This document shows positions 1,243 to 3,183 of a stretch of 4,312 nt of DNA, piece by piece. The position numbers and the translations under genes were made by a program. The notes beneath the pieces are model-generated. The model had not been told where the DNA came from. It was given only the letters and a program-made list of their open reading frames with translations, and ran no database searches. How positions within the stretch are numbered: position 1 is the first letter of the stretch; each line of letters starts with the position of its first letter. The DNA is taken from NCBI RefSeq assembly GCF_003334405.1, contig NZ_QOWM01000033.1, one strand, 5' to 3'. The DNA comes from Escherichia coli (lineage in GTDB: Bacteria > Pseudomonadota > Gammaproteobacteria > Enterobacterales > Enterobacteriaceae).

Positions 1243-2204
1243 AGGATAACACCGTGCCACTGAAATTGATTGCCCTGTTAGCGAACGGTGAATTTCACTC
1301 TGGCGAGCAGTTGGGTGAAACGCTGGGAATGAGCCGGGCGGCTATTAATAAACACATTCAGACACTGCGTGACTGGGGCGTTGATGTCTTTACCGTTCCG
1401 GGTAAAGGATACAGCCTGCCTGAGCCTATCCAGTTACTTAATGCTAAACAGATATTGGGTCAGCTGGATGGCGGTAGTGTAGCCGTGCTGCCAGTGATTG
1501 ACTCCACGAATCAGTACCTTCTTGATCGTATCGGAGAGCTTAAATCGGGCGATGCTTGCATTGCAGAATACCAGCAGGCTGGCCGTGGTCGCCGGGGTCG
1601 GAAATGGTTTTCGCCTTTTGGCGCAAACTTATATTTGTCGATGTTCTGGCGTCTGGAACAAGGCCCGGCGGCGGCGATTGGTTTAAGTCTGGTTATCGGT
1701 ATCGTGATGGCGGAAGTATTACGCAAGCTGGGTGCAGATAAAGTTCGTGTTAAATGGCCTAATGACCTCTATCTGCAGGATCGCAAGCTGGCAGGCATTC
1801 TTGTGGAGCTGACTGGCAAAACTGGCGATGCGGCGCAAATAGTCATTGGAGCCGGGATCAACATGGCAATGCGCCGTGTTGAAGAGAGTGTCGTTAATCA
1901 GGGGTGGATCACGCTGCAGGAAGCGGGGATCAATCTCGATCGTAATACGTTGGCGGCCATGCTAATACGTGAATTACGTGCTGCGTTGGAACTCTTCGAA
2001 CAAGAAGGATTGGCACCTTATCTGTCGCGCTGGGAAAAGCTGGATAATTTTATTAATCGCCCAGTGAAACTTATCATTGGTGATAAAGAAATATTTGGCA
2101 TTTCACGCGGAATAGACAAACAGGGGGCTTTATTACTTGAGCAGGATGGAATAATAAAACCCTGGATGGGCGGTGAAATATCCCTGCGTAGTGCAGAAAA
2201 ATAA
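1239..2204 (+). CDS. birA: Bifunctional biotin-[acetyl-CoA-carboxylase] ligase / bio operon repressor (BirA)
   Basis: 321-aa ORF. N-terminal helix-turn-helix region ([26 protein letters not shown]) and the biotin-binding loop GRGRRGRKW are recognisable. Length matches E. coli BirA. GGAG lies 8 nt upstream of the ATG. Start overlaps the murB stop. Confidence 0.95.
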
Positions 2205-2205
2205 G

Positions 2206-2227
2206 AAAGGGGAGTATTCGCTCCCCT
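2206..2227. terminator. Shared bidirectional intrinsic terminator between convergent birA and coaA
   Basis: AAAGGGGAG-TATTCG-CTCCCCT hairpin (GGGGAG/CTCCCC core, 6-nt loop) fills the 28-bp gap between the birA stop (2204) and the coaA stop (2233-2235 on the minus strand). Read on the minus strand the hairpin is followed by TTTCTTATTTTTCT; on the plus strand only by a weaker T-containing tract (TGCAAATTATTTG). Confidence 0.65.
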
Positions 2228-2232
2228 GCAAA

Positions 2233-3183
2233 TTATTTGCGTAGTCTGACCTCTTCTACCGCATGATTAGCACTTTTCGTCAGGATTAAACTGGCGCGCT
2301 CACGAGTAGGTAGAATATTTTGCTTTAAGTTCAGCCAGTTGATCTCTTTCCACAATGTCATGGCAGTCTTAATCGCTTCTTCTTTAGTTAATTTCGCGTA
2401 GTTATGAAAATAGGAATCCGGGTCGGTAAAAGCCCCTTCGCGGAATTTCAGAAAACGGTTGATATACCATGTCTGAAGTAAGTCTTCCGGTGCATCAACA
2501 TATATCGAAAAATCGACAAAATCAGAAACAAATACATGATGTGGATCGTGTGGATAATCCATCCCGCTCTGTAAGACATTTAACCCTTCAAGAATTAAAA
2601 TATCAGGCTGAACAACCGTTTTATCTCCATCCGGGATCACATCATAAATAAGATGTGAGTAAACAGGTGCTGTAACGTTTGGCACGCCGGATTTGAGATC
2701 GGAAACAAACTTCACCAGGCGATGCATATCATACGATTCCGGGAAGCCTTTCTTCTTCATCAGACCACGTTCTTTCAGAACCTGATTAGGGTGAAGGAAG
2801 CCATCTGTAGTGATCAGTTCAACACGACGATGTTCCGGCCAACGGCTTAATAGCGCCTGCAATACACGGGCGGTTGTACTTTTCCCCACCGCGACACTGC
2901 CAGCAATACTGATAATGTAAGGAATGCGTTGCCCGTTGGTACCAAGAAACTGTTCCAGAACTGCCTGACGGCGCAGATTCGAGCTTATATAGAAGTTCAG
3001 CAAACGTGACAAAGGTAAATAGATCTCGGCAACTTCTTCTAACGAGAGATCTTCATTAATACCTTTGAGACGGGCGATCTCATCTTCCGATAACGTCATA
3101 GGTACGGAATCACGCAGAGCTGCCCACTGGTTGCGGTCAAACTGTAGGTAAGGCGTCATTAACGTTTGCTCTTTTATACTCAT
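2233..3183 (-). CDS. coaA: Type I pantothenate kinase (CoaA)
   Basis: The ORF-track frame 2233-3339 encodes 368 aa, but the protein from Met53 onward ([20 protein letters not shown]..., 316 aa, Walker A motif GSVAVGKST) matches E. coli CoaA as I remember it. The start is therefore placed at the ATG at 3183-3181 (minus strand). The 52-codon upstream extension is treated as non-coding; start choice is the main uncertainty. Confidence 0.9.

Follow-up and report, generated by a model that had tools for sequence, protein, structure and literature searches.

In the gap between the convergent genes birA and coaA of Escherichia coli lies one conserved, G+C-rich hairpin, which most probably defines where both transcripts end (we put the probability of this reading at about 0.8), with coaA ending by intrinsic termination and the murB-birA transcript ending at a degenerate half of the same element, assisted by Rho and by trimming. 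The element is real but ordinary and of a known kind, a bidirectional terminator that has already been mapped. The window, i.e., the whole stretch of 4,312 nucleotides that was analysed, has the E. coli gene order murB-birA / coaA / thrU-tyrU-glyT-thrT-tufB, and around the birA/coaA gap it is identical to K-12; MG1655 positions were converted to window positions by a coordinate offset. A literature search combining birA, coaA and terminator yielded a sole paper on the locus, which names the genes just as having been inserted between rrnB and tufB.

Hairpin and tails in the birA/coaA gap

The features of the gap and its surroundings are as follows.

1239–2204, plus strand: birA coding sequence (ORF list, RefSeq annotation), second gene of the murB-birA transcript
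2233–3183, minus strand: coaA coding sequence (RefSeq annotation) for type I pantothenate kinase, running towards birA
2205–2232: intergenic gap of 28 bp between the birA and coaA stop codons
2208–2227: terminator hairpin with arms AGGGGAG (2208–2214) and CTCCCCT (2221–2227) and spacer 2215–2220; RNA of either strand can form it
2196–2208, minus strand: U-run UUUCUUAUUUUUC belonging to the intrinsic terminator of coaA, situated partly in the gap and partly over the birA stop and the two codons before it (sequence, terminator scan match, tail score)
2227–2235, plus strand: birA-side tail UGCAAAUUA, without a real U-run and polymorphic in E. coli (sequence, tail score, model)

The ORF list also holds a 368-aa, TTG-initiated frame for coaA that is longer than the annotated coding sequence, and promoter-like sites were noticed at 2513–2601 on the plus strand. 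Transcription starts at about 190 from the murB promoter and at about 3264 from the coaA promoter.

The inverted repeat is perfect over 7 bp with a 6-nt spacer and fills 20 of the 28 bp of the gap. Gap RNA of the plus strand folds with –14.3 kcal/mol, an additional U-G pair leaving a loop of 4 nt, and that of the minus strand with –12.3 kcal/mol, as a stem-loop with five G:C pairs among its 7 bp and a 6-nt loop; z-scores range between –3.3 and –3.6, and 0–1 of 200 dinucleotide shuffles were as stable. The two strands differ in what follows the stem. The minus-strand tail past the last G:C pair reads TTTCTTATTTTTC (2208 down to 2196), the coaA-side tract UUUCUUAU having six T in eight positions and a tail score of 4.8, whereas the plus-strand tail TGCAAATT has three T in eight and the birA side (UGCAAAUU) almost no U-run, its tail score of 2.4 being close to the 2.05 of arbitrary sequence. 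Distally, the coaA U-run coincides with the last birA codons, GAA AAA TAA.

The initial annotation, made from the sequence alone, had described convergent stops 28 bp apart, one GGGGAG/CTCCCC hairpin in the gap and a poorer U-tract on the plus strand, and all three descriptions hold: the last base of the birA stop is 2204 and the first of the coaA stop 2233, the arms are found at 2208–2214 and 2221–2227, and the tails differ as given above. Its placement of the coaA T-run in the final birA codons is largely but not entirely correct: the tail has just its first four bases in the gap, and the remainder overlies the birA stop codon and last two codons.

A simple terminator scan called the hairpin in the minus-strand orientation only, and in the plus orientation neither the scan nor the covariance model described below gave a match. 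Over the whole window the scan found 3 sites, compared to 4.5 ± 1.8 in shuffled sequences, i.e., no excess, so that a scan match by itself is not evidence; the hairpin stands out from chance through the conservation and covariation of its stem, together with the published 3' ends. An Rfam search of the window found no family at the hairpin, the real matches being four tRNAs only. A REP or other repeat element was ruled out, the 96-nt region occurring once per genome (median).

Transcript ends, read-through and Rho-sensitive regions

Published K-12 datasets place the following features around the hairpin.

2201–2203 (MG1655 4174044–4174046), minus strand: coaA mRNA 3' ends in published maps, 5–7 nt past the stem, at positions occupied by the stop and the final codon of birA
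2229–2232 (MG1655 4174072 and 4174075), plus strand: murB-birA transcript 3' ends in two published datasets, 2–5 nt past the stem
2406 (MG1655 4174249), plus strand: bicyclomycin-sensitive (Rho) region antisense to coaA, peak Rho score 3.58 (Adams et al. 2021, supplementary file 2)
1949 (MG1655 4173792), minus strand: bicyclomycin-sensitive (Rho) region antisense to birA, peak Rho score 4.11 (Adams et al. 2021, supplementary file 2)
2117–2168, minus strand: secondary stem-loop inside birA (antisense), –12.7 kcal/mol, z –3.0 (fold, TRS table)

For coaA, the 3' end is at 4174044/45 in TRS, at 4174046 on two condition sheets of the Term-seq data (Adams et al. 2021) and at 4174045 in SMRT-Cappable-seq (Yan et al. 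2018); in all three datasets it falls inside the U-run, 5–7 nt beyond the stem base at 2208. In the opposite direction, SMRT-Cappable-seq recovered a full-length primary murB-birA transcript, 4172033–4174072, starting at the murB promoter (Yan et al. 2018), and the TRS data (RNAtag-seq) have a peak at 4174070–4174080 with its dominant position at 4174075, significant in three replicates; these ends, at 2229 and 2232, lie just past the stem. Adams et al. (2021) list no plus-strand end at the hairpin in their Term-seq tables, a second TRS dataset sheet has the coaA end only and no plus-strand end, and the TERMITe supplements contain no entry for the birA/coaA locus. The convergent transcripts overlap by about 27–32 nt, and the overlap, 2201–2232, encloses the hairpin at 2208–2227, so that between these convergent genes the 3' ends of both transcripts flank the same structure. 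That one hairpin serves both genes had been proposed initially, with 3'-end mapping on both strands named as the check, and the published K-12 maps bear the proposal out.

Long-read counts give 18 reads passing the birA site versus 32 ending at it (18/50) and 11 passing the coaA site versus 17 ending at it (11/28), the meaning of the “passing” and “at site” columns being presumed. By these published counts, in which birA is weakly expressed and read numbers are small, read-through is similar in both directions; the TRS signal is 0.63 on the plus and 0.60 on the minus strand. The clearest asymmetry between the directions is that plus-strand ends are more diffuse, with 56 reads ending up to 50 bp downstream versus 32 at the site, compared to 11 versus 17 for coaA.

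Bicyclomycin-sensitive regions follow the hairpin on both strands. The plus-strand region (p 1.3e-7) lies within about 175 nt downstream of the hairpin (Adams et al. 2021); the Rho scores derive from 800-nt windows, and the signal on either strand could reflect antisense promoters in coaA or birA instead of hairpin read-through. Downstream of the hairpin the minus strand is C-rich and G-poor, with C/G ratios of 1.6–2.3. The plus strand has ratios of 0.8–1.25 over the first 150 nt and 1.3–1.4 around 2320–2410 (0.8–1.4 overall), and since it is not clearly C-rich and G-poor, there is no obvious rut site just downstream. A published minus-strand 3' end at 4173960 (TRS) coincides exactly with the base of the 2117–2168 stem-loop, which is likely the end point of coaA read-through. 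At an additional plus-strand 3' end, window position 2451, the local fold was no better than that of shuffled sequences (z = 0.19).

The initial annotation had added the corollary that birA termination may be the less efficient one, with antisense read-through into coaA. The data bear this out in part only: the plus-strand ends are diffuse and a Rho region lies at 2406, but the minus strand has a comparable Rho region, the read-through counts are similar and the TRS signals nearly equal.

Conservation in Enterobacteriaceae and decay in Escherichia

The comparative set comprised 80 Enterobacteriaceae species loci, found through CoaA. A convergent birA is present in 67 of them, with gaps of 23–65 bp, and a homologous hairpin of the GGGAGC...GCUCCC type, with compensatory changes in the stem, in 66 of these 67. 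The covariance-model alignment was used here; plain MAFFT misaligned the 3' arms through differing loop lengths. Stem cells are 98.7% paired, four of the seven pairs are altered on both sides, and the covariation score was reached by 0 of 500 shuffles, counted on a structure-fitted alignment into which both strands of each locus were entered. Among the 29 seed sequences the GGGAGC/GCTCCC stem is invariant and the loops vary freely; likewise, six E. coli alleles have an unchanged GGGGAG/CTCCCC core.

An upstream A-run has been named as a hallmark of bidirectional intrinsic terminators. The corresponding A-run/U-run symmetry, with at least five T in eight in both tails, is found in 53 of the 62 non-Escherichia loci, but not in the window or in most Escherichia: the six Escherichia sequences (five species loci and the window) have 6/8 T on the coaA side and 2–5/8 on the birA side. 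In this set the degraded birA-side tail is peculiar to Escherichia, whereas elsewhere an A-run and a T-run flank both sides as a rule. Consistently, the covariance model (R1) scores both strands almost equally in other genera, e.g., 45.8 and 45.2 bits, while in the window it matches the coaA-sense strand only (24.7 bits, E 0.003). A symmetric allele, of the Citrobacter or Klebsiella type, reads UUUUUAUU. In place of the A-run proximal to coaA, K-12 has UUUGCA as read in the coaA sense and UGCAAA as read in the birA sense; the birA-side tail alleles within E. coli are UGCAAA (K-12, O157), UGAAAA (others) and UUUAAA (UTI89).

Mechanism, alternatives and meaning

In the proposed mechanism, coaA would be ended by a canonical Rho-independent terminator, the 7-bp stem followed by the U-run, with release 5–7 nt past the stem. 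For murB-birA the same hairpin would act as the degenerated side of a bidirectional terminator that was symmetric in the ancestor, with an A-run before and a T-run after the hairpin, and whose birA-side U-run would have decayed in Escherichia; yet the hairpin would still give a defined 3' end 2–5 nt past the stem. A sizeable share of polymerases may continue for tens of nucleotides and be stopped by Rho inside antisense coaA, and the run-on RNAs are probably trimmed back to the hairpin by 3'-exonucleases. Leak-through of the coaA terminator may likewise be cleaned up by Rho inside antisense birA. The anatomy and the conservation with covariation are shown, as are, by published tables, the positions of the 3' ends and Rho-sensitive regions; the respective shares of weak intrinsic termination and of Rho followed by trimming at the birA end are inferred.

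The element resembles bidirectional Rho-independent terminators in that one GC-rich hairpin between convergent stops is read from both strands, with the ends flanking the stem; unlike the symmetric representatives, only one orientation is canonical in E. coli K-12. On the birA side, a stable stem-loop without a U-run stands at the steady-state 3' end. This agrees with Rho-dependent ends as described by Dar and Sorek (2018), according to whom Rho-terminated E. coli transcripts end precisely just past stable stem-loops lacking a U-run, the cause being that the stems block PNPase and RNase II; the end a few nucleotides past the stem fits as well, as may the bicyclomycin-sensitive region within about 175 nt. 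In contrast, the birA-side stem has no clear C-rich, G-poor tract immediately downstream, and dependence of its 3' end on Rho, PNPase or RNase II is putative. A further relative is the can/hpt terminator (Yan et al. 2018, SMRT-Cappable-seq), again a terminator common to convergent transcripts with direction-specific behaviour; the birA/coaA ends are listed in the tables of the same paper. However, can/hpt is strongly asymmetric, with 93% of one transcript terminating and 85% of the other reading through, whereas the birA/coaA counts are similar, and no full antisense gene transcript has been reported at birA/coaA.

A possible, though doubtful, alternative is that termination is intrinsic in both directions, the hairpin and the short U/A tail CUCCCCUGCAAAUUAUUU ending birA less sharply but without Rho or trimming. 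The similar long-read read-through (18/50 for birA, 11/28 for coaA), the TRS signals of 0.63 and 0.60, the slightly more stable plus-strand hairpin (–14.3 versus –12.3 kcal/mol) and the UUU kept straight after the stem in some E. coli alleles (UTI89) are all in keeping with it. Set against these are a birA tail score of 2.4, near that of arbitrary sequence (2.05) and half the 4.8 of the coaA side, the failure of both the scan and the covariance model to call the plus orientation, the diffuse plus-strand ends (56 reads within 50 bp downstream versus 32 at the site) and the Rho-sensitive region downstream.

We consider it very unlikely that polymerase collisions drive termination here, the hairpin pausing polymerases and head-on and trailing collisions releasing them, which would make a U-run unnecessary (Ju et al. 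2019; Wang et al. 2022/2023). The anatomy is as described for such sites: the overlapping terminators of Ju, Li and Liu (2019; SEnd-seq) comprise a convergent pair with an end overlap of about 30 nt, a hairpin inside and one noncanonical side, and birA/coaA has overlapping ends (about 27–32 nt) that enclose a hairpin and a birA side without a canonical U-run. The collision process is more frequent at highly expressed genes (Wang et al. 2022/2023), and since both genes are weakly expressed (about 0.2–0.5 mean read starts per position in the birA and coaA coding sequences, versus about 20 in tufB), collisions should be rare. Moreover, unlike in those terminators, the coaA side is a fully canonical, textbook intrinsic terminator, and in other genera both sides are canonical.

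A role mainly as a 3' stability element, with Rho terminating both transcripts elsewhere and trimming proceeding to the hairpin, is quite improbable. The Rho-sensitive regions downstream on both strands, and the protective stem-loops documented at Rho-dependent 3' ends, would suit such a role, but the strong coaA U-run, with ends within the run 5–7 nt past the stem, would not; and the symmetric A-run/T-run flanks kept in 53 of 62 other species count against it, because exonuclease protection would not select such flanks. Although the 3 scan sites in the window do not exceed the 4.5 ± 1.8 of shuffles, the idea of a functionless chance palindrome has practically no probability left, being already refuted by the retention of the hairpin in 66 of 67 species, where its stem shows compensatory changes and its loop varies freely, by a fold z of about –3.5 and by the mapped 3' ends on both strands.

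Under the preferred reading, of one hairpin with an intrinsic coaA side and a degenerate birA side, the strain-variable birA-side U-run could vary the amount of murB-birA read-through RNA that is antisense to the 3' portion of coaA, and thereby couple the biotin ligase/repressor to pantothenate kinase expression through Rho-limited antisense transcription or polymerase interference; we regard such coupling as highly improbable. Beyond correct annotation the significance of the element is small. That convergent E. coli genes share bidirectional terminators is well established, and published genome-wide tables already include the 3' ends of this locus, which have received no individual discussion. 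The terminator is symmetric across most of the Enterobacteriaceae but one-sided in Escherichia, and it differs among E. coli strains; it provides a tidy case of half a bidirectional terminator degenerating, with Rho apparently as the backstop, and could help to calibrate terminator predictors or serve as a natural allelic series on the importance of the U-run in vivo.

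The birA–coaA gap and its hairpin

The 4312-bp window matched E. coli chromosomes over its full length with 100% identity and was found in each of the 5426 complete genomes searched. Its features according to the RefSeq annotation are:

214–1242, plus strand, murB
1239–2204, plus strand, birA
2233–3183, minus strand, coaA
3545–3986, tRNA-Thr/Tyr/Gly/Thr
4101, start of tufB

Since birA and coaA end at 4174047 and 4174076, respectively, in MG1655 (NC_000913.3), MG1655 coordinates equal window coordinates plus 4,171,843; between 2170 and 2265 the window does not differ from a K-12 MG1655 assembly. 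The murB stop and the birA start share the sequence ATGA (1239–1242), an overlap that would fit co-transcription and translational coupling of the two genes. In the SMRT-Cappable-seq data, murB-birA transcription starts at 4172033 (window 190), 24 nt 5' of the murB ATG, and coaA transcription at 4175107 (window 3264), 81 nt 5' of the annotated coaA ATG. A mechanical ORF list lengthened coaA to a TTG start (2233–3339, minus strand; 368 aa, as compared to 316 aa for the annotated CDS starting at 3183); this extension was rejected as the real N-terminus because the mapped start at 3264 falls within the longer ORF.

The birA stop codon TAA (2202–2204) and the complement of the coaA stop codon (2233–2235) enclose a gap of 28 bp (2205–2232), 20 of which are covered by the perfect inverted repeat AGGGGAG (2208–2214)/CTCCCCT (2221–2227) with six bases between its arms. 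Predicted RNA folds of the gap reach –14.3 (plus strand) and –12.3 kcal/mol (minus strand), with z-scores of –3.3 to –3.6, equalled by 0–1 of 200 dinucleotide-preserving shuffles. The minus-strand tail 3' of the stem is UUUCUUAUUUUUC (2208 down to 2196), that of the plus strand UGCAAAUU; their first eight bases contain six and three T, and their decaying-weight tail scores are 4.8 and 2.4, respectively, on a scale where arbitrary mixed sequence gives about 2.05 and a pure T-run 7.15. The recursion used for this score reportedly goes back to d'Aubenton-Carafa et al. 1990. Sequence, fold and tail counts thus agree with the initial annotation, which had described a single shared hairpin with uneven tails in this gap. 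Its placement of the coaA T-run inside the last birA codons is accurate for most of the run, but the first four bases of the tail lie within the gap, and only the remainder extends over the birA stop and the last two birA codons. A consensus terminator scan called the hairpin in the coaA direction only; as terminator-like sites in the window were not more frequent than in shuffled sequences (3 vs 4.5 ± 1.8), the scan alone is no proof of a terminator.

Both genes end in AAA-TAA, and the resulting inverted repeat AAATAA/TTATTT (2199–2204 and 2233–2238) flanks the gap, the Lys-stop of either gene giving UUAUUU to the terminator tail of the opposite gene. In species with gaps of 23–26 bp, the stop codons form part of the U-runs.

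Transcript ends, read-through and Rho

In three independent published K-12 datasets, coaA transcripts end within the U-run, at window positions 2201–2203, 5–7 nt beyond the stem: two condition sheets of the Term-seq study contain 4174046 (–), classed as "primary coaA, antisense birA" (Adams et al. 2021; PMC7815308), the minus-strand peaks detected by TRS have 4174044 and 4174045 as their dominant positions (PMC10687069), and SMRT-Cappable-seq found a full-length primary transcript from 4175107 to 4174045 over b3974 (Yan et al. 2018; PMC6131387). On the plus strand, TRS on RNAtag-seq data yielded a peak at 4174070–4174080 (dominant position 4174075), significant in three of three replicates and annotated in the 3'UTR table as the birA primary 3' terminus (PMC10687069), and SMRT-Cappable-seq a full-length murB-birA transcript, 4172033–4174072, over b3972 and b3973 (PMC6131387). 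These murB-birA ends correspond to window positions 2232 and 2229, 2–5 nt beyond the stem. Mapping on both strands thus bears out the proposal that RNAs of both directions end at this hairpin, on either side of it; the convergent transcripts overlap by about 27–32 nt, with the entire hairpin inside the overlap. The Term-seq tables of Adams et al. (PMC7815308) do not list the plus-strand end, and the second TRS sheet (PMC10687069) contains the coaA end without the birA end, which fits low birA expression but remains a caveat. SMRT-Cappable-seq labels the 3' ends at this hairpin "novelTTS" relative to RegulonDB (PMC6131387). A further TRS minus-strand end, 4173960 (window 2117), lies exactly at the base of a birA-internal antisense stem-loop (2117–2168, minus strand; –12.7 kcal/mol, z –3.0), and is probably the resting point of coaA read-through RNA, about 85 nt past the main terminator.

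Local read-through is 1 minus the TRS signal R = L/(L+D). In the RNAtag-seq dataset, R was 0.60 at the minus-strand end and 0.63 at the plus-strand end; the second sheet gives 0.85 for coaA. R exceeds 0.9 for strong terminators of the same TRS table. Of the murB-birA SMRT-Cappable-seq reads, 170 were counted at the start and 32 at the termination site, with 18 passing and 56 having their ends up to 50 bp downstream (median read-through, 72 nt); the corresponding counts for coaA were 56, 17, 11 and 11 (median, 32 nt). The suggestion that birA termination is the less efficient is therefore only partly supported: 3' ends are far more diffuse on the plus than on the minus strand, but the leak is similar both ways, about 36% for birA and 39% for coaA when reckoned as "passing" against "at the site" with the meaning of these columns assumed. 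The bicyclomycin experiment of Adams et al. (PMC7815308) revealed Rho termination regions on both sides of the hairpin, one antisense to coaA at 4174249 (+) (window 2406; Rho score 3.58, p 1.3e-7) and one antisense to birA at 4173792 (–) (window 1949; score 4.11, p 1.2e-8). As these scores were computed over 800-nt windows, the signal may also come from internal antisense promoters; promoter-like sites occur on the plus strand at 2513–2601. 3' of the hairpin, the minus strand is rich in C and poor in G (C/G 1.6–2.3), the plus strand not clearly so (C/G 0.8–1.4).

In the coaA direction, the element shows every sequence and mapping feature of an intrinsic terminator. In the birA direction, the stem is present and the RNA end adjoins it, but the tail does not qualify as a U-run. 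The birA end could arise by weak intrinsic termination, or by Rho termination shortly downstream and exonucleolytic trimming back to the hairpin, a route that Dar & Sorek 2018 describe as the general one where stem-loops at E. coli 3' ends lack a U-run. Collision-driven termination, the model of Ju et al. and Wang et al., is another possible origin; however, according to these authors collisions are most important for highly expressed genes, and birA and coaA are both weakly expressed, making frequent head-on collisions unlikely. We favour a mixture of weak intrinsic termination and Rho termination with trimming, as would be suggested by the scatter of the ends downstream, the region sensitive to bicyclomycin and the weak expression of both genes.

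Comparison across Enterobacteriaceae and within E. coli

A CoaA-based scan with one genome per species retrieved 80 Enterobacteriaceae loci (protein identity 90–100%). The two genes are convergent and 23–65 bp apart in 67 loci, 66 of which have a homologous hairpin in the birA/coaA gap, typically GGGAGC-loop-GCUCCC. The exception, the Entomohabitans teleogrylli locus, has its own stem-loop (GCCGCAG...CUGCGGC) in a longer gap of 65 bp. Among 29 seed sequences the GGGAGC/GCTCCC stem is invariant, while loops vary freely among species, and changes in one arm of the stem are matched in the other (GGGGGC/GCCCCC, GAGGAGC/GCUCCUC, GGAGAGC/GCUCUCC, GGGGGAU/AUCCCCC, GGGGCC/GGCCCC). In the covariance-model alignment, which was fitted to the model and in which most loci are represented by both strands, pairing holds in 98.7% of cells, with changes on both sides in four of seven pairs; the covariation score was reached by none of 500 shuffles, and sliding the partner by 1–3 columns lowered pairing to 55–71%.

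Both tails have at least five T in eight in 53 of 62 non-Escherichia species, forming a textbook symmetric A-run/hairpin/T-run terminator; in the six Escherichia sequences (the window and five species loci), the coaA side always has six of eight T, the birA side only 2–5. Likewise, the covariance model scores nearly equally on both strands in other genera, but in the window it matched the coaA-sense strand only (24.7 bits, E 0.003), with no plus-strand match at E ≤1. BirA ends in ...SAEK* in Escherichia (loci L003–L007) as compared to ...SAE* in most other species (L008–L082); the extra AAA (Lys) codon, within window 2199–2204, lengthens the coaA U-run on the opposite strand by UUU.

In the remaining 13 of the 80 loci (Enterobacter, Leclercia, Lelliottia, Silvania and others), birA is not downstream of coaA. 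Twelve of these (L036, L049, L052, L057, L060, L062, L064, L065, L066, L071, L079 and L081) share an unrelated terminator just 3' of the coaA stop (2414–2460 in L036), again symmetric, and perfectly so, with the sequence AAAAAAACCGGCG...CGCCGGUUUUUUU or AAAAAAACCGGCG...CGCCGGTTTTTTT. In L036, the one such locus examined for its neighbour, the gene facing coaA codes for an ABC-transporter ATPase.

Within E. coli, the 96-bp stretch 2170–2265 is unusually polymorphic: among the 5426 genomes, 2370 were identical, 1916 matched at 95–99% and 815 at 90–95%, and 325 had no megablast match. The GGGGAG/CUCCCC core is the same in six representative alleles, which differ in the loop and its closing pair (U-G, C-G or C/A). 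Six of their eight variable columns lie inside the gap and outside the stem core, and two variable bases set the birA-side tail to UGCAAA, UGAAAA or UUUAAA. The GC dinucleotide that spoils the birA-side U-run also creates a palindrome, GCAAAT/ATTTGC (2228–2240), which spans the coaA stop codon as a weak second hairpin adjoining the terminator; it occurs in the K-12 and O157 alleles, and neither the remaining E. coli alleles nor other Escherichia have it.

Bidirectional terminators between convergent genes, their leakiness and the suppression by Rho of the resulting antisense transcription are established. As 3' ends at this hairpin are also already contained in published tables, the birA/coaA terminator is real but already known. 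The sole mildly new points are evolutionary: the ancestral symmetry of the terminator, the decay of its birA half in Escherichia, and the polymorphism of this half in E. coli.
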